Shown: positions 16,175 through 23,855, counted from the first letter of the stretch. The stretch is 59,130 bases of DNA from an uncultured Muribaculaceae bacterium (GCA_964551965.1 CAZKFB010000003.1:1-59130); one strand, 5' to 3'. Notes: generated by a model not told the origin, from the sequence alone. Made by a program: numbers and translations.

Positions 16175-16873
16175 ATGTTAGAATTTATAAAGAATTGTTT
16201 TAAAAACATAAGTGTTAAATGTAATTATCAAGAGTTGGCGGGAGTTAAAAAAGTTATAGCTTTTGCTTTTTGCGCTATTCTTATTGCTCTTGTCTTAGGT
16301 ATTGCTGCTGCTATGATAGTTGCAATGCTTGCATTAGCTATTTGTATTATACCTATAGGTTTAGTAATTAATGGTGTTCAATTATTAGTTCCATTAATTA
16401 AACAATCATTGAAAGTTGCTAAAATGAAAAAGAAATTAAAAAAACAAAAGCGTAGACAATCACAAGAACTTGTTGAACTTTATACTAACAATATGGAGAG
16501 TATTAATAATACTATAGGAGCATTAGAAAATAGTTCTACTATTGTTGAAGATGAATTAGGTAGAGAAGTAGAAACACAAGAATTAGTTGATATTAGTCTA
16601 GAAGACCTTGTATGTTATATTCAATATATAGCTACAATTAATCCTGGCGATGCAGAAATGTTAATGGGGCTTCATTCTCGTCTAGATATGCTAAAATCAA
16701 TTATGGATAGAACTATAAGTCATGAAGAACGTGAAAAACTTGAAAGTGAATACTATAGTATAATGTTCAGTGTTCAAGAAAAACTTATTGAATATGTTGA
16801 TGGCATAAATAGTATAAATGATACTTTTGTTAAAGGAACAAAAAAAAGAAGATTATTTAATAGGGGATTATAA
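16175..16873 (+). CDS. Hypothetical membrane protein (232 aa)
   Basis: Long hydrophobic stretch near N-terminus, charged helical C-domain. Confidence 0.75.
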   Translation: MLEFIKNCFKNISVKCNYQELAGVKKVIAFAFCAILIALVLGIAAAMIVAMLALAICIIPIGLVINGVQLLVPLIKQSLKVAKMKKKLKKQKRRQSQELVELYTNNMESINNTIGALENSSTIVEDELGREVETQELVDISLEDLVCYIQYIATINPGDAEMLMGLHSRLDMLKSIMDRTISHEEREKLESEYYSIMFSVQEKLIEYVDGINSINDTFVKGTKKRRLFNRGL

Positions 16874-17584
16874 TCTTCTTTTTATTTCTAATAATTTATT
16901 TACTTCATAAGTTGGTATTAAATTTCCTGCTTCTTTATTTTGTGGGTTATACCAAATAGTATCAAAACCATTATTAATTCCGCTAGCAATATCTGTAGTG
17001 AGGGAATCTCCGATAAATATAACATTACTTTTGGGTTCTTTTAAATCGTTAAATAGAGCATCCCAGAAATTGTGATCAGGTTTAGAAAAACCTAAAACTT
17101 CTGAACAATATATACTTGTAAAATATTTTTTAAAATCAACTTTGTTTAATTTATTTGTTGCGGCATTATATGGGCCATTAGTTGCAATAGCTAGACGGTA
17201 TTTATCGTATAGATATTCAAGAATCTCTCTAGCGCCTTCAATACTTTCAATATCAACACCTAAATTGCTACAATAAAGATTATTAATAGTTATAGCATGA
17301 TCAAAATCTTGAAGATGGAAGAATTCAAAAAATCTATTTGATCTTAAATAAGTTCTTAATTCTTCAACGTTCTCTTGAATATAAAGATGCTCAGGGACTA
17401 TCATTGTTCTATGTTCCCATCGGTACCAATATTCATAATCAAACTGTAAAAAAGCATAAAATAATTCATCTTGATAGGGAATACCTAAATACTCAGAAAT
17501 AACTTTAAATGCATAATTAGAAGCTTTAGTATTATCTATTAAAGTATCATCTAAATCAAGTATTATCGTGCTATATTTTTTCAT
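16868..17584 (-). CDS. YjjG-like HAD-superfamily nucleotidase
   Basis: ILDLDDTL, ATNG, KPD, IGDSLTTDIASG, TIWYNP. Confidence 0.9.
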   Translation of the reverse strand: MKKYSTIILDLDDTLIDNTKASNYAFKVISEYLGIPYQDELFYAFLQFDYEYWYRWEHRTMIVPEHLYIQENVEELRTYLRSNRFFEFFHLQDFDHAITINNLYCSNLGVDIESIEGAREILEYLYDKYRLAIATNGPYNAATNKLNKVDFKKYFTSIYCSEVLGFSKPDHNFWDALFNDLKEPKSNVIFIGDSLTTDIASGINNGFDTIWYNPQNKEAGNLIPTYEVNKLLEIKRRL

Positions 17585-17684
17585 GATATCCCTCCTTGAT
17601 TTGTTATTATATCATATTTACACTGATATGCTAGAAAATAAATACAAAACTAAATTATTTGATATAATTATAGTAGGTGATTGT

Positions 17685-18779
17685 ATGATACAAGAGTTTT
17701 TACAAGGATTAAAAAGTAAGTACCAATATGATGATAATATATTAAAAGCAATTGAGATAACAATTAATTTAATGATTAAAAAGTATGGGAATGAAGCATT
17801 GAATGATATCTTAGAATTATTTAATAGTATTCCGATTTTTCCTTTTGTTGGATTAAATCAGAGTATTGTTAATGAAAAAATGAAAGAGTGTTTTGAAGGA
17901 AATAATCCTCATATTATTGAAGATGAAGAAGAGAATATATATGGTACTAATGCCGTAGGATCTGTATATTGTTATAATCCAATATTTAATGAAGATATGG
18001 AAGTAGTAGGAGAATCCAATTTTATAATTGTTGATGATAAAAAGGGTACAACTCAAGAAGCGGATTATTTTAATACTTTTGGTACAACAATAAATATTCC
18101 TTATTTCTTACATGAAGTTAATCATGCTTATGGTATGCAAAAGAAGAAATATGTTAATATAGATAATCAAATATTATGTAAACATGGATTATTTACTTCT
18201 GTTATTGATTATAAAAAGGAAGGAGATAAATATCATATAAGTACAACTAGTGGAAAAGATATTGTATTTGAAGAGATCATTAATCAAATGATAACCCAAG
18301 ATATGTTATGTGATTTCTTTAATGTTAATTCGTATAATGAAGTTAAACCAATACTTGATAGTATTAAATATGTTCCGATGGAATATGATTCTCTTCTAGT
18401 ATTTATTGGTAGAGAACTTAGTTTTGCAATGGGCGAGCAAGCAATTATGGATTTTAGAAGAGAAAATGATGAATCAGTCATTGAAGAATTTAATAATATG
18501 GCTGGACAAAGTGATATAGCAATTGAATATTTAGATGGAATAAAACCTCTTGAATATTTTGTTAACAAAACATATGATTTATTTCAACTTATTATTAACA
18601 AGTATAAATATGGCATTGAAAAATATGGTGAATTATCAGCAGAACTTATGTTAGATTCTTTAGCCCCCGTATATGCTTATGCAGATAAAAAGAATAATAC
18701 AGTTACTTTAGAAAAATATAAACAACAAAGAGAAAAAGTAATGAGTCCTTATAATAATCCGGATAAAAAATTAGACTAG
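17685..18779 (+). CDS. Putative zincin metallopeptidase-like protein (~364 aa)
   Basis: LHEVNH (HExxH) plus downstream FEEIIN; ATG 17685 has AGGTG RBS and TGATATAAT at 17660; track start 17568 overlaps the opposite gene. Confidence 0.6.
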   Translation: MIQEFLQGLKSKYQYDDNILKAIEITINLMIKKYGNEALNDILELFNSIPIFPFVGLNQSIVNEKMKECFEGNNPHIIEDEEENIYGTNAVGSVYCYNPIFNEDMEVVGESNFIIVDDKKGTTQEADYFNTFGTTINIPYFLHEVNHAYGMQKKKYVNIDNQILCKHGLFTSVIDYKKEGDKYHISTTSGKDIVFEEIINQMITQDMLCDFFNVNSYNEVKPILDSIKYVPMEYDSLLVFIGRELSFAMGEQAIMDFRRENDESVIEEFNNMAGQSDIAIEYLDGIKPLEYFVNKTYDLFQLIINKYKYGIEKYGELSAELMLDSLAPVYAYADKKNNTVTLEKYKQQREKVMSPYNNPDKKLD

Positions 18780-18793
18780 TTCCTCATGAGAAT

Positions 18794-18822
18794 TTGACAT
18801 TTTTAAATATTTCATATATAAT
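18794..18822 (+). promoter_or_regulatory. Consensus sigmaA promoter
   Basis: TTGACA 18794-18799, 17-nt spacer, TATAAT 18817-18822. Confidence 0.85.
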
Positions 18823-18894
18823 GGCTTTCAAGTGAGGAGATATAAGTTAATCGAGCTATCTCGGGTGAAGAGCCTACACAATTATTATAATTGG

Positions 18895-18928
18895 AGTCAC
18901 GAACTATCTTGTTCGTGGCTTTTTGTTT
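18895..18928 (+). terminator. Intrinsic terminator / attenuator hairpin 1
   Basis: agtcacgaac-tatctt-gttcgtggct (10 bp incl. one GU) followed by ttttgttt. Confidence 0.75.
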
Positions 18929-18957
18929 GGAGTTACGAGCATAAAGGAGGATGTAAT

Positions 18958-19038
18958 ATGAAAAATTATGTCATGTATTTTTATAATTGTTTCTATGCTG
19001 TCAGTGACTCAATAACCATTATGAGTGAGTTATTTTAA
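18958..19038 (+). CDS. 26-aa small ORF MKNYVMYFYNCFYAVSDSITIMSELF (leader peptide or small protein)
   Basis: AAAGGAGG at 18943-18950, 7 nt before ATG; equals the C-terminal part of track ORF 18832..19038. Confidence 0.6.
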   Translation: MKNYVMYFYNCFYAVSDSITIMSELF

Positions 19039-19073
19039 CCAAATAATGACATACTTGGATTTTAATCATTGAT

Positions 19074-19108
19074 AACATAGACTTAATTATTTGTCTATGT
19101 TTTTGTTT
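19074..19108 (+). terminator. Intrinsic terminator / attenuator hairpin 2
   Basis: aacatagac / gtctatgtt stem followed by tttgttt. Confidence 0.7.
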
Positions 19109-19171
19109 ACACATTAATCTTTTTCTACTAATTAGTATGTTATAATTTTAAATAGTAGGAGTGTGATGTTT

Positions 19172-20149
19172 ATGGCTGTAATTGAAGTAAAGAATTTATC
19201 AAAAAAGTTTAAAGTAAAAATAAAGGAAAAAGGTTTAAAAGGTAGTTTAAAAACTATAATTAAACCAAAATATAAGACAATAGAAGCTGTAAAAGATATT
19301 AGTTTTGAAGTAGAAAAAGGAGAAATTGTTGCCTTTATTGGACCTAATGGAGCAGGTAAAAGTACAACAATTAAGATGATGACAAGTATATTGAATCCTG
19401 ATTCAGGTTCTATTAAAGTACTAGGATTTGATCCAATGAAAGATCGTAAGAAATTATCATACGCAATTGGAACAGTATTTGGTCAAAAAGAACAATTATG
19501 GACGCATTTAACTCCATACGATAACTTTAAGTTCTTTGGAGCTATTTATGATATTCCATCCTATGCTGTTGATAAAAAGATAGAGGAATTTAAAGCATTG
19601 TTTGAATTGGAAGAATTTATAGATACTCCAGTTCGTAATCTATCTTTAGGTCAAAGAATTAGATGTGAAATTGTTGCATCTTTAATTCATGAACCTAAAG
19701 TAATGTTCTTAGATGAACCAACGATTGGTCTTGATCCGGTAGTTAAAGAAAATATTAGAACTTTAATTAAACGAATGAATAAGGAATATAAGACAACAAT
19801 AATATTAACGAGTCACGATGTATCTGACATTGAAAAACTATGTAAACGAGTAATCATTATTAATAATGGACAATTAGTAATGGATGATTCAATGGAGAAT
19901 TTAAAATATCATTATTTAAACAAAAAGATTGTTGATGCTAAGATGAGAGAAAAAGTTAATCTAGATGATGAAGATGGTATAACAATTCTTAAGGATAAAG
20001 GATATAACATTAAAATAGAAGTTGATATTACTAAGAGAAGTGTAACTGATGCGTTAAAACTATTGAATCCTGATAATATAGTTGATATTAATATATCTAA
20101 TACTCCACTAGAGGATATTATTAGTAGTATTTATAAAAATAAGGAGTAA
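19172..20149 (+). CDS. ABC transporter ATP-binding subunit (DrrA-like)
   Basis: GPNGAGKS, LSLGQ, FLDEPTIGLD, TSH; start may be 19163 or 19166. Confidence 0.92.
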   Translation: MAVIEVKNLSKKFKVKIKEKGLKGSLKTIIKPKYKTIEAVKDISFEVEKGEIVAFIGPNGAGKSTTIKMMTSILNPDSGSIKVLGFDPMKDRKKLSYAIGTVFGQKEQLWTHLTPYDNFKFFGAIYDIPSYAVDKKIEEFKALFELEEFIDTPVRNLSLGQRIRCEIVASLIHEPKVMFLDEPTIGLDPVVKENIRTLIKRMNKEYKTTIILTSHDVSDIEKLCKRVIIINNGQLVMDDSMENLKYHYLNKKIVDAKMREKVNLDDEDGITILKDKGYNIKIEVDITKRSVTDALKLLNPDNIVDINISNTPLEDIISSIYKNKE

Positions 20150-20150
20150 C

Positions 20151-20942
20151 ATGAAAAAGTATTTATTTATAATAAAAACCGAAATAATGTCTAATTTCCA
20201 ATATATATGGAATGTTTTATTTGGATTTGTTGGTTATGCAATTATATTATTTATTCTATTTAACTTATGGAAATATCTCTATAGTGATCCTAGTCAATTA
20301 ATAAATGGCTATAACATGAATCAAATGACATGGTATGTAATTATTACTGAGATTCTTTGGAGTACTTTAGGTGGTAGAAAATTATGTCGTAAGATAAGTA
20401 ATGATGTTAAAAGTGGTAATATAGCTTACAACATAAATAAACCTTATGATTATATTGGTTATTCTCTATCTACTCATTTAGGAGATATGATAGTAAAAGG
20501 AATTATATTTACTATTTTAGGAATGCTTCTTGGATATATATTTTTAGGATCTTTTCCAAATTTAAATATAATTAGTATATTAATACTTATCTTAGTAGCA
20601 ATTTTAGCATCAATTATTAGTTGTTTATTAATTATTATAATTGGACTATTTTCTTTCTTTATTGAAGATTCAGGACCATTCTATTGGTTATATAGTAAAT
20701 TTATTCTTATTTTAGGAACGATATTTCCTATTGAATACTTTCCTAAAGTAATGCAAGGATTTTTGAATTATAGTCCAGTTTATGTAGTTAGTTATGGACC
20801 TGCTAAATTGTTTGTTGATTTTTCTTATTCAAGAGCTTTATCAATAATAATTGCCCAAGTAGTTTATATTATTGTTGTATCTTTAATTGCAAACATTATA
20901 TATAGAAAGGGAGTGAAGAGAATAAATGTTAACGGTGGTTAA
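20151..20942 (+). CDS. ABC-2 type permease
   Basis: Six hydrophobic segments, G-I-A-x-x-I-x-KP loop, operonic with the ATPase. Confidence 0.85.
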   Translation: MKKYLFIIKTEIMSNFQYIWNVLFGFVGYAIILFILFNLWKYLYSDPSQLINGYNMNQMTWYVIITEILWSTLGGRKLCRKISNDVKSGNIAYNINKPYDYIGYSLSTHLGDMIVKGIIFTILGMLLGYIFLGSFPNLNIISILILILVAILASIISCLLIIIIGLFSFFIEDSGPFYWLYSKFILILGTIFPIEYFPKVMQGFLNYSPVYVVSYGPAKLFVDFSYSRALSIIIAQVVYIIVVSLIANIIYRKGVKRINVNGG

Positions 20943-21720
20943 AAATCAAATAAAAGTTAATTTATTAACACTTAAATATGCTATTATGAGAGAAATGATT
21001 AATAAAATCACATTCTTTTCTAATATTATATTTATGATATTGAATAATTCATGTATGATTGTTCAATGGGTTGTTCTTTTTTCCATTAAAAGTGATATGG
21101 GGGGATATACTTTTCGAGATGTCCTTCTATTATGGGGACTTGCAGCAGGGACATATGGAGTATCACATTTTTTCTTTAAGAGATGTTTTAATCTATCAGA
21201 AACTATTAATAATGGTTCTTTAGACAATTATATTATTCAACCTAAAAATATCTTATTATCAGCTATTACTTCGGATGTTGAAGTGTCAGCCTTAGGTGAT
21301 ATGGTATTTGCTATAATAGTCTATTTTATATATGGATTTACTATTAGAGGATTTATTCTATTCATCTTGTTTTCTATAACAGGAGGTTTAATGATAACAG
21401 CTATTTCTGTTATCTTGAATAGTTTGAGCTTTTGGTTTAATAATGCCGATATGATTGCTGAATCAGGTAATGGTTTAATGACTAACTTTGCAACATATCC
21501 GGATGGAATATTTAAGGGAATTACTAAATGGTTACTATTTACAATTATTCCGGTTGGAATAGTTAATTATATACCAATAAAAGCAATAATAGCTTTTAAT
21601 CCAACATTGTTATTAATCAATGTTGTTGGTTGTATAATATTGGTTACTTTAGCATTCTTAGTATTCTATTTAGGTTTAAAAAGATATTCATCTACTAACT
21701 TGATGAATGCAAGAATTTAA
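20926..21720 (+). CDS. ABC-2 type permease (second subunit)
   Basis: Six hydrophobic segments, GSLDNYIIQP and YPDGIF motifs. Confidence 0.85.
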   Translation: MLTVVKNQIKVNLLTLKYAIMREMINKITFFSNIIFMILNNSCMIVQWVVLFSIKSDMGGYTFRDVLLLWGLAAGTYGVSHFFFKRCFNLSETINNGSLDNYIIQPKNILLSAITSDVEVSALGDMVFAIIVYFIYGFTIRGFILFILFSITGGLMITAISVILNSLSFWFNNADMIAESGNGLMTNFATYPDGIFKGITKWLLFTIIPVGIVNYIPIKAIIAFNPTLLLINVVGCIILVTLAFLVFYLGLKRYSSTNLMNARI

Positions 21721-21764: not shown

Positions 21765-22391
21765 TTAAAGTGCCTGATTTTTTATATCTCCATAAAAATT
21801 ATCTCCACAATTTTGTATTAGATATTCATTAGCTTTATATATTTTAGTAAATTCATATCCGTTAGATTTATCTTGAAATGCATTAAATAGAAGATAACCA
21901 ATTAGAAATATATTCATTTCTTTTATATTGTTATTATAGAAGTTTTTCTTTAAAAATTCTTCTTCAGTAGGAACGTACATATAACTAGTTAAATCAATAA
22001 AGTAGAAATGATTATCATGTATTATGTAGTTATAGTATAAGTCTTGTATTTTAAATCCATTATCACTCAAAATGATAATATCTTCTTTGATTCCTTCATA
22101 GTCTATTGAATCTCTATCTAATTCACTTTCTAGTAGTTTATTTTCAGTATATCCAATTACCATACCATCTTTGATAATTAAGTCTTGAGGTTTATTAAAG
22201 AATTTTAGGGGTAGAGTACTTAATTTTTCTATACCATTAATACTTATTATTTTATATGGAGAAGTTCTATTGTTTGAAAATAGTTTTATTACTTTATCTT
22301 CATAGTTATAAGCAGTTACTTCTTTTCCAGCACCTAAAATATTATCTTCTCTTATGTATTGTTCAATATTTTCATAGTTTATTTTATTCAT
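21765..22391 (-). CDS. Minimal protein-kinase-like fold protein (208 aa)
   Basis: LGAGKEVTAY Gly-loop, VIK, QDLYYN and FID motifs. Confidence 0.55.
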   Translation of the reverse strand: MNKINYENIEQYIREDNILGAGKEVTAYNYEDKVIKLFSNNRTSPYKIISINGIEKLSTLPLKFFNKPQDLIIKDGMVIGYTENKLLESELDRDSIDYEGIKEDIIILSDNGFKIQDLYYNYIIHDNHFYFIDLTSYMYVPTEEEFLKKNFYNNNIKEMNIFLIGYLLFNAFQDKSNGYEFTKIYKANEYLIQNCGDNFYGDIKNQAL

Positions 22392-22481: not shown

Positions 22482-23855
22482 ATGTTAAGAAATGTAATTT
22501 CCGTAATTGATGGAGCTGCCGGTTCTTGTGGTAAAGCTAAAGTAATTGGTGAGATAGCTACTTTAGAAGGAATTAATTTAGGTGCTAGTGTAACCAATTG
22601 TATGCCTAATGCTGGTCATTCTTTTGTTGATAATAGAGGTAAAAAAATAGTATTTCGCAATATTCCCGTATCTTCAGTTAACCCTAAAACAGAATTATTT
22701 ATTGGTCCAGGATCAGCAATTGATATGGAAGTATTTAAAGATGAATATATGCGAGTTCAGAAAATTGTTGGAAATCGAAAAATATATATTCATGAGATGA
22801 CTCCCTTAATAGAAGAAAGACATAAAGCATATGAAAGGGAGCATATAAAAAGCGGTTCGACTTTTAAAGGATGTGGAGCTGTTACTCAAGAGAAAGTTAT
22901 TCGTGATGAAAAGTTAAGATTCTTTAAAGATTTTAAAAATGCTATAGTTTTATCCAATGATGATTGGTTAGATTGTCTTTATAAACATTTAGATAATGAA
23001 TCTGAATATGTTATGATGGAAGGATCTCAGGGTTGTGACTTAGATTTAAACCATAGTGGTAATTATCCTTATGTAACGAGTAGAAATGTATCAACAACTC
23101 AGTTGCTTGCCGATTCAGGAATTTCTGCAGAAAGATTGTTACAAACAATTTTAGTAATTAGACCTTTTCCAATTAGAATAAGCAATATTACTAAAACAGG
23201 TAAATATATCTATACTGGTTCTTATGGTACGGGGGAAGAATTAAAATGGACACAAGTAAATTTAGCTAGTATGTATGGTGGTTATCCATTTAAAGGCGAT
23301 GTTGATTTATATTCATCTAAATTAGCATGTGATATTGTTTCAAGACTTATTGATGAATGTCCGGAAGTATATTTAAAACAAGTATTTAAAAATAATTATA
23401 AAAATATTGTGGTAGAAAACATTACTCTTTTAGAAGCCTTAGAAATTGAGAGATTAGTTCATAAATCAAGAGGAGAAAGAGAGTACCAAACCGAGTTAAT
23501 AGATTTACCAACATTAGATTCTGAATTACCGGAAAACACGATAATAGATCAATCAGAAGAGACAACAGTTACAAAGATGGAGAGAAGAATATTTGATCTC
23601 GATATAAATAAATTAAAAAATAATTGCCGTATTAATACACCATCTAGTTTATATCTTAACTTTTTTGAACATTTAGGATACGAATTTATAAATGAAAAAG
23701 GTTTATTTGATGATATATATTTTAATAGGTATTTAAGAGAATATTTAAATTGGTTAGAGTATGAAACGGGCATTGATATATCAGCTTTAGGTACGGGACA
23801 AATTAATGGAAGTAGGATTGTAAAACAAAGAATATTGAGAGATATAATAAAGTAA
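22482..23855 (+). CDS. Adenylosuccinate synthetase-family enzyme with PurZ/PurZ0-like signatures and ~100-aa insertion
   Basis: GSCGK (Ser15 in place of the Asp of PurA GDEGK), MPNAGH, GSTFKG, EGSQG, YPYVTSR, RPFPIR, TTVTKMERR, LNF, LGTG. Confidence 0.85.
   Translation: MLRNVISVIDGAAGSCGKAKVIGEIATLEGINLGASVTNCMPNAGHSFVDNRGKKIVFRNIPVSSVNPKTELFIGPGSAIDMEVFKDEYMRVQKIVGNRKIYIHEMTPLIEERHKAYEREHIKSGSTFKGCGAVTQEKVIRDEKLRFFKDFKNAIVLSNDDWLDCLYKHLDNESEYVMMEGSQGCDLDLNHSGNYPYVTSRNVSTTQLLADSGISAERLLQTILVIRPFPIRISNITKTGKYIYTGSYGTGEELKWTQVNLASMYGGYPFKGDVDLYSSKLACDIVSRLIDECPEVYLKQVFKNNYKNIVVENITLLEALEIERLVHKSRGEREYQTELIDLPTLDSELPENTIIDQSEETTVTKMERRIFDLDINKLKNNCRINTPSSLYLNFFEHLGYEFINEKGLFDDIYFNRYLREYLNWLEYETGIDISALGTGQINGSRIVKQRILRDIIK

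Follow-up and report, generated by a model that had tools for sequence, protein, structure and literature searches.

The DNA analysed here (the window) is a stretch of 59,130 nucleotides (nt) given as an uncultured Muribaculaceae bacterium (GCA_964551965.1 CAZKFB010000003.1:1-59130), and the element under study is the leader of an operon for a DrrA-like ABC ATPase and two permeases. From 5' to 3', this leader holds a strong promoter, a structured RNA, an intrinsic terminator (terminator 1), a strand that repeats the 5' arm of that terminator, a ribosome-binding site (RBS) with a 26-codon open reading frame (ORF), a weak second terminator and an extended -10 box (Table 1). These features had been listed in a preliminary description made from the sequence alone, and all of them were present at coordinates that were exact or off by 1-2 nt; terminator 1, for example, had been placed at 18895-18928. 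Conservation or recurrence in other genomes was found for three parts, the first ~100 nt of the leader, the repeat after terminator 1 and the TGnTATAAT box; the ORF, an 8-bp inverted repeat and terminator 2 are without conservation outside the species. The segment 18830-18928 probably belongs to a so far uncatalogued class of candidate riboswitches that would turn transcription ON.

Table 1. Features of the leader and the operon behind it, in window coordinates.
Feature	Position	Strand	Remarks
Promoter P1, sigma-70 type, TTGACA-17-TATAAT	18794-18822	+	Consensus match 12/12
Aptamer-like four-way junction	18830-18900	+	Covariance-model match 99 bits, E 1e-16 to 1e-18
Helix P1	18832-35 with 18897-900	+	GUGA with UCAC
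J1/2	18836	+	G
Helix P2	18837-42 with 18857-62	+	GAGAUA with UAUCUC; encloses internal loop and small distal hairpin
P2 internal loop	18843-45 / 18853-56	+	UAA / GAGC
Helix P3	18863-66 with 18872-75	+	GGGU with GCCU
J3/4	18876-78	+	ACA
Helix P4	18879-84 with 18888-93	+	CAAUUA with UAAUUG
J4/1	18894-96	+	GAG
Intrinsic terminator 1	stem 18894-18921, U-run to 18928	+	-16.5 kcal/mol
Terminator 1, 5' arm	18894-18904	+	Contains J4/1 and 3' strand of helix P1
Terminator 1, 3' arm	18911-18921	+	
Third strand S3, GGAGUUACGAGCA	18929-18941	+	Copies terminator 5' arm; can pair with 3' arm (18910-18922), U-run as loop
RBS AAAGGAGG	18943-18950	+	
26-codon ORF and stop	18958-19038	+	Peptide MKNYVMYFYNCFYAVSDSITIMSELF; species-specific
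Possible decayed second aptamer copy	19018-19108	+	Ends in terminator 2; position orthologous to copy 2 of relatives G006 and G007
Terminator 2	stem 19074-19101, U-run to 19108	+	Weak, -10.0 kcal/mol, 2 G-C pairs
Extended -10 box TGTTATAAT	19138-19146	+	Likely internal promoter P2 of ABC operon, downstream of switch
Regulated operon	19172-21720	+	DrrA-like ABC ATPase and two ABC2_membrane_6 permeases (Pfam)
DrrA-like ABC ATPase	19172-20149	+	Probable start ATG 19172; RBS GGAG 19158-61
ABC2_membrane_6 permeases	20151-20942 and 20926-21720	+	Pfam

Promoter, conservation and distribution of the leader RNA

The promoter, noted beforehand as a perfect TTGACA-17-TATAAT, scored 12/12, and its predicted transcription start (~18829-18831) lies 1-3 nt 5' of helix P1 of the aptamer. 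The strong promoter is kept together with the RNA in four genomes of the window's genus, and family-wide a promoter of at least 10/12, with its -10 box ending 8-11 nt 5' of GUGAG, precedes 88 of 137 distinct copies; the copies without such a promoter are mostly second members of tandems. The region 18830-19110 was more stably folded than shuffled versions of it (z = -3.1; none of 200 did as well), and terminator 1 was the sole terminator-like site in a 1-kb scan (0.2 expected), in which terminator 2 was not flagged.

In a DNA search of 40 related genomes, only 18829-18925 (query 40-136) was matched; the matches came from four members of the window's genus, with 79-87% identity and unconserved flanks. 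Same-species contigs (99% identical) carried 5 substitutions in 410 nt, none of them in the aptamer, terminator 1 or the third strand. With a covariance model built from 7 sequences of the window's genus, the RNA was found in 40 of 301 genomes of the window's family (small-genome gut Bacilli), representing 34 of 214 genera, often with two or three copies per genome and with one copy in the window's own genome. An IUPAC pattern for the core gave more than 120 stretches among the matches listed from a species-representative genome collection, most of them in metagenome-assembled genomes (MAGs) labelled uncultured Bacilli, Tenericutes, Mycoplasmatota, Candidatus Onthousia, Pelethosoma or Coprovivens and a few in Clostridia MAGs from digesters, and the covariance model produced 106 matches within 80 fetched loci selected by this pattern. 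About 150 motif copies were found in total. Samples of 399 genomes each, drawn across the class and across the phylum, contained no motif match outside the window's own family.

Six core-pattern matches in IMG/VR viral contigs (L161-L166) were discarded as chance occurrences in two unrelated coding sequences, having neither P2 complementarity nor a match to the model; they give a feel for the false-positive rate of the core pattern.

Secondary structure and covariation

The minimum free energy fold of the isolated 72 nt 18830-18901 is exactly the predicted four-way junction (-13.5 kcal/mol), and the hairpins GAGATA/TATCTC and CAATTA/TAATTG picked out earlier recur in it as helices P2 and P4 (18837-18862 and 18879-18893). 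The motif consensus runs from AAGUGAG through the P2 5' strand, UAA, a variable hairpin, GAGC and the P2 3' strand into P3 (GGG, loop, CCU), and then through ACA, the variable hairpin P4 (C...G), GAG and UCAC. Its invariant elements are GUGAG, UAA, GAGC, GGG, CYUACAC and GGAGUCA, and the ~35 near-invariant bases, mostly unpaired, lie in the junction and the internal loop. The UAA/GAGC internal loop presumably resembles the UAA/GAN tertiary motif.

Pairs were counted in an alignment of 106 other copies fitted to the model. Paired cells amounted to 89.9%, against 70.7% in shuffles and 35-51% with slid partners, and changes on both sides were seen at 23 of the 30 pairs, so that the structure covaries across homologous leaders, the check that the preliminary description had proposed. 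P2 was paired in 99.8% of cases, with one of its positions occurring as UA (48), GC (47), AU (7) and CG (3). Helix P1 was GUGA/UCAC in 117 sequences, and its variants still paired: GUGA/UCGC, with a G.U pair, in 8, GCGA/UCGC in 2 and ACGA/UCGU in 1. The leader RNA is a conserved aptamer-like element with invariant unpaired nucleotides and a secondary structure backed by covariation, as expected of a riboswitch.

Terminator overlap and predicted ON-switch logic

The strand GGAGUCAC, made up of J4/1 and the 3' strand of helix P1, is located in the 5' arm of terminator 1, and in many copies the 3' strand of P4 also falls within this arm. In 119 of 146 copies, at least 4 of the 8 nt of GGAGUCAC form pairs in a hairpin with a U-run behind it, an expression platform that competes with an aptamer helix. 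Because this strand is common to both, aptamer and terminator are mutually exclusive, and the predicted effect of a ligand is therefore to turn expression on.

In the proposed mechanism the strong promoter would fire constitutively and the RNA would begin just 5' of helix P1. Without ligand, GGAGUCAC(GAA) would pair with the downstream 3' arm and transcription would stop at the U-run, giving an RNA of ~100 nt; with ligand, the four-way junction P1-P4 would be stabilised, GGAGUCAC would be held in helix P1 and J4/1, and the terminator would be blocked, allowing read-through. We infer both ligand binding and the ON polarity in vivo.

A third strand follows terminator 1. The near repeat consists of GGAGUCACGAAC at 18893 and GGAGUUACGAGC at 18929, and the second copy pairs with the terminator 3' arm over 10 contiguous bp. 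S3 and the 3' arm together form a 13-bp hairpin of -15.9 kcal/mol (terminator 1, -16.5 kcal/mol), and the full leader with helix P1 enforced and the S3 hairpin formed has -30.4 kcal/mol, against -32.6 kcal/mol for the terminator form. Among the motif loci, 49 of 134 showed at least 7 contiguous pairs between the terminator 3' arm of the locus and the first 30 nt behind its U-run, compared with 15.3 +/- 3.4 in shuffles and 14.5 when downstream segments were permuted among loci. The full pairing of the near repeat with the 3' strand of terminator 1, already remarked on for the window, is thus recurrent and covaries with each locus's own arm. Since S3 is transcribed after the termination decision, it is unable to act as an antiterminator. 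It may instead lock the aptamer fold of the read-through mRNA: S3 would pair with the idle 3' arm after read-through, and in the full-length mRNA the aptamer-folded state would then be nearly equal in stability to the terminator state.

Gene position, tandem units and regulon

For 144 of 147 copies a gene in the same orientation is listed downstream, typically with its start 20-60 nt away, a consistent position in the 5' untranslated region and orientation relative to the regulated genes, as in riboswitches. At least 15 loci contain two complete aptamer-terminator units, 8-61 nt apart and nearly all before an ABC operon, and the two units of a tandem differ systematically in their P2 and P4 sequences. 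In the genomes G006 and G007 the same ABC operon follows as in the window, with a second, diverged motif copy between copy 1 and the operon, the P2 of which is changed from GAGAUA/UAUCUC to UAUGUA/UACAUA; in G001 and G015 a 141-amino-acid (aa) protein without known function comes directly after the motif. In most genomes the downstream gene begins within this short distance past the switch, and ABC operons often lie behind two tandem switches, an arrangement that, by analogy with known tandem riboswitches, would be expected to make the response steeper and more digital.

The motif came in two flavours in the alignments, with identical junction nucleotides. The first has a GAGAUA-type P2 and an AAUU-type P4 and was mostly the promoter-proximal copy among the examples inspected, and the second, with a UAUG(U/C)A-type P2 and a CG-closed P4, was apparently mostly the ABC-adjacent copy, again among the examples inspected.

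Downstream genes were counted for the 144 copies that have one. The DrrA-like ABC ATPase with its two permeases follows 54 copies (the same three-gene ABC operon in 44 loci), members of one large GNAT cluster, some fused to HD domains, follow 22, a Spo0A-C-like protein of ~200 aa (cluster 4) follows 19, and proteins of 141 aa and 288 aa, neither with an assigned function, follow 7 and 5. Fewer copies precede other GNATs, a class I methyltransferase, S66 (LdcA/MccF family) and S51 peptidases, an MFS efflux protein, an NTP_transf_2 nucleotidyltransferase, a P-loop kinase-like protein, a Ham1-NUDIX fusion, a PF01663 phosphodiesterase and a dCTP deaminase. The Clostridial copies (~50% G+C) precede RimJ/RimL-like GNATs, so that the association with GNATs, found also after these distant copies, is the most widely shared link. 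The gene set, in which the Ham1-NUDIX, HD and PF01663 proteins are nucleotide hydrolases, looks like a detoxification or resistance regulon and suggests a toxic compound that the cell exports, acetylates or modifies in some other way; candidate ligands are amine-bearing or nucleotide-like xenobiotics or antibiotics.

For the cluster-4 protein, a structure model (pLDDT 82) was searched against the PDB with Foldseek, and the seven best fold matches were all the C-terminal DNA-binding domain of Spo0A (probability 0.80-0.99, five of them 0.98-0.99; target-normalised TM-score 0.60-0.70), with weak E values of 0.16-1.5; a sequence search of the PDB with the cluster-4 profile gave no match, the fold search alone finding one. 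This protein was considered as an obligate trans factor and rejected in that role, being absent from 10 motif-bearing genomes (in a positive control it was detected in 3 of 3 genomes), and it is therefore a target of the switch and not its sensor.

Several small proteins of 60-180 aa, otherwise without an assigned function, in many motif loci (e.g. L075, L048, L031, L033, L065) share an LGF/Y..x..GTxYL-like motif with the Spo0A-C-like cluster, and these genomes may thus contain a large and divergent family of Spo0A-C-like regulators that lack a receiver domain.

Probable internal promoter and the region between terminator 1 and the operon

The box TGTTATAAT, which the preliminary description had put forward as a possible separate promoter for the operon, proved to be recurrent. 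The window, G006 and G007 share TGnTATAAT in the same position, and 11 of ~36 distinct ABC loci have TGnTAnAAT 25-50 nt upstream of the ABC start codon, far above our own rough chance estimate of ~2% per locus. This recurrence suggests that the operon probably has basal expression bypassing the switch; the weak extended -10 promoter would supply the ABC exporter at a switch-independent basal level.

At the position of the window's ORF, the syntenic relatives G006 and G007 carry a second aptamer and no RBS. Copy 1 is separated from the ABC start by 234 nt in the window and by about 180-220 nt in tandem loci. The covariance model gave only 7.5 bits at 19018-19108 (E 0.12), and local alignment of the second module with eight copy-2 sequences gave z values of -0.8 to 2.0 (1.6-2.0 for G006 and G007), which are not significant. 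Judged by synteny, the second unit of the window may have decayed into an unconserved stretch in which an RBS and a 26-codon frame occur by accident. The simplest reading, of moderate confidence only, is that the second module is what is left of an element that formerly separated switch and operon.

In another locus (L047, CALVJZ010000055.1, ~1260-1530), a visibly decayed Spo0A-C-like gene lies between two motif copies, its fragments MIKRLVEFSELEQINMIISGTSYAMF... and MDELGTYLYKDV... split by stops and frame changes, which shows that a gene between switch 1 and switch 2 can erode. An origin of the window's ORF region as a fragment of an ABC permease was also considered and rejected: the tblastn match had E 0.001 as one of ~380 queries, 176 of 2000 shuffles scored as well, and no DNA similarity was seen.

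Weighing of the alternatives

As judged from sequence, the structured RNA represents a new riboswitch-like class with a putative ON terminator platform, tandem use, a likely bypass promoter and an unusual post-terminator strand. Several points weigh against a small-molecule riboswitch of this kind. Helix P1 has only 4 bp and is nearly invariant, and its covariation rests on 3 double-changed sequences; the pair counts, coming from alignments fitted to the model, lean towards structure; the regulon is heterogeneous, with transcription-factor-like proteins and many unassigned genes, and indicates no single metabolite; the decay of copy 2 is read from synteny only, the sequence similarity being not significant; and the effector could be a macromolecule (a protein, the ribosome or another RNA) in place of a small molecule.

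The last of these points, that the same leader is an attenuator with a macromolecular effector (an antiterminator protein, a tRNA, a small RNA or the ribosome), is the alternative that survives best, and we regard it as unlikely. Leaders with protein-dependent terminators or antiterminators are common in Bacillota, the regulon is mixed and includes Spo0A-C-like DNA-binding proteins, and no ligand is deducible. However, the commonest co-located candidate, the Spo0A-C-like protein, is the one missing from 10 motif-bearing genomes, the motif occurs in two Bacillota classes with different gene sets, near-invariant and mostly unpaired nucleotides round a compact junction are typical of ligand pockets, and tandem copies are characteristic of riboswitches and T-boxes.

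A ribosome-controlled attenuator had been suggested for the second module; that one of the bmrB-bmrCD or erm leader type works there, behind the riboswitch, appears improbable. The BmrB leader peptide is a precedent, and the layout in the window is suggestive: the RBS is strong and well spaced, a terminator-like hairpin begins 36 nt past the end of the ORF, the 3' arm of terminator 2 recurs in the ORF as TCTATG, and AAAGGAGGAT with a short ORF follows the switch in two other ABC loci (L095, L061). Yet the three short ORFs, of 26, 23 and 4 codons, have no common sequence; the peptide and its DNA are unconserved beyond the species, with no detectable homologue of the ORF region in the other sampled genomes of the genus and no occurrence of the 26-aa peptide in a collection of 15 billion proteins; and in the syntenic relatives this place is taken by an RNA aptamer and lacks an RBS. 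Terminator 2 is weak, and the internal promoter lies downstream of it. The same-species contigs carry two substitutions in the ORF, one synonymous (N3) and one non-synonymous (Y13C), too few to inform on selection. The complementarity noted earlier between 18967 and 19046 is real, TATGTCAT (18967-18974) and ATGACATA (19046-19053) being exact reverse complements over 8 bp, and alternative pairings of 6-8 bp are possible in the second module; they are unconserved, and one partner becomes a wobble in the same-species contigs. The preliminary description had made its proposal depend on a conserved structure or peptide upstream of homologous operons: the structured RNA is conserved, the peptide is not, and an ORF conserved in position and sequence before homologous operons, which a leader-peptide attenuator would have, was not found. 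The 26-codon ORF is probably not a functional gene.

That the terminated transcript of ~100 nt is primarily a trans-acting small RNA, to which the downstream genes are incidental, is very improbable. Such an RNA would have its own strong promoter and terminator, as this one does, no conserved gene directly follows it in the window, and terminated riboswitch RNAs that act in trans are known in SreA and SreB of Listeria; against this stand the co-oriented gene listed after nearly every copy, the several copies per genome that each precede functionally related genes, the overlap of the terminator 5' arm with conserved aptamer strands, and the existence of tandems. A trans role could exist alongside the role in cis. 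A type I toxin-like or other bioactive small peptide, in favour of which stands the short, aromatic and hydrophobic product with a strong RBS inside a structured mRNA, is hardly credible, as the hydrophobic run of ~12-14 residues is too short for a membrane helix, no antisense promoter on the minus strand exceeds 9/12, and conservation is absent.

Within the ON riboswitch reading, one more specific proposal can be made, which is tentative. The RNA may represent a new natural class of riboswitch in which a xenobiotic or antibiotic-like toxin of the gut, of amine-bearing or nucleotide/aminoacyl-nucleotide type, is sensed directly, and which switches on a dedicated resistance regulon (ABC/MFS efflux, several GNATs, nucleotide hydrolases, MccF-like S66 and S51 peptidases and a Spo0A-C-like transcription factor), with the post-terminator strand as a previously undescribed lock stabilising the ON fold; as a joint claim, this is possible and not yet probable.

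If a small molecule is bound, the motif would be a new riboswitch class with a new fold, in a large, uncultured and little-understood family of gut Bacilli with small genomes. Nearly all genes of the regulon are of unassigned specificity, and the identity of the ligand would at once assign a function to the DrrA-like/ABC2_membrane_6 exporter, to many GNATs and to the receiver-less Spo0A-C-like proteins, and would reveal which toxic compound these gut organisms defend against. The tandem units, the bypass promoter and the recurrent third strand would add detail beyond the standard terminator/antiterminator scheme.

Neighbouring genes in the window

The ABC ATPase scored 247 bits with the NCBIfam drrA subfamily model, below its cutoff. 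Beyond the operon, 22482-23855 (+) encodes a divergent adenylosuccinate-synthetase-like protein of 457 aa with the P-loop DGAAGSCGKAKV and a C-terminal extension of ~190 aa; its best NCBIfam match was PurZ (succino-amino-deoxyadenylate synthase, 174 bits, cutoff 300), followed by archaeal-type short PurA, and no canonical purA was found in the window's 81%-complete genome. Between this gene and the operon, 21765-22391 (-) encodes a protein of 208 aa without a family match, with an N-terminal glycine-rich, lysine-containing kinase-like motif and, by eye, a likeness to the kinase-like proteins of motif-regulated operons elsewhere (cluster 20). Upstream of the leader, the proteins of 403 aa (17568-18779, +) and 232 aa (16175-16873, +) had no Pfam match, and the former also no NCBIfam match; in G006 the upstream position is taken instead by a protein of 337 aa that is sigma-factor-like by eye.

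Comparison with known regulatory RNAs

The whole window and 18 diverse loci were searched with Rfam 15 at gathering thresholds, and the only matches were one tRNA in the window and T-box leaders elsewhere in two of the loci. At E <= 10, a search of the 550-nt leader and one Clostridial copy gave on the motif best scores of 14-21 bits, to unrelated miRNA and sRNA models with thresholds of 44-80. Literature searches by sequence words, gene association and topic returned no description of the motif, and only Gd4v was similar by description; large unnamed catalogues of microbiome RNA motifs (PMC8040213) may hold it without comment. The preliminary description, which recognised no known riboswitch and proposed an undescribed riboswitch or small RNA, was right to the extent that the leader contains a conserved, covarying cis-regulatory RNA with no Rfam match.

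Gd4v, a variant of guanidine-IV (Lenkeit et al. 2022, PMC9788692), is an orphan riboswitch candidate with a terminator-based ON mechanism, enriched in gut metagenomes and linked to GNAT and efflux genes. Its fold is a pair of hairpins linked through a pseudoknot, over half of the examples lie upstream of a PRK07324 transaminase, and it is found in Actinobacteria, Bacteroidetes and Firmicutes (PMC9788692). The present motif, by contrast, is a four-way junction, was never seen before a transaminase and is concentrated in one Bacilli family; the two hairpins with a loop-loop pseudoknot and conserved loop nucleotides that mark guanidine-IV and Gd4v were not found in it, nor was a relevant match to Rfam at the permissive threshold.

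Tandem riboswitches with separate expression platforms have been reviewed (Sherlock et al. 2022, PMC9481103), and the present motif likewise places two complete units in series; in the window only the first unit is intact. Leader-peptide attenuators such as the erm and cat leaders and bmrB-bmrCD also have a short ORF with an RBS between promoter and terminator, and likewise stand before an ABC exporter, but the ORF of the window is unconserved and homologous loci carry an RNA aptamer in its place.

The closest likeness in design is to the terminator-coupled ON riboswitches for toxic ligands (guanidine-I and -IV, fluoride, azaaromatic yjdF, Na+/Li+). In these classes, as here, the 3' strand of the aptamer serves as the 5' arm of the terminator, read-through is predicted when the ligand is bound, the targets are exporters or modifying enzymes, GNATs included, and tandems occur. 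The present motif differs from them in its four-way junction with a UAA/GAGC loop, for which Rfam 15 holds no match, and it adds, in about a third of its members, a strand after the terminator that re-pairs with the terminator 3' arm.

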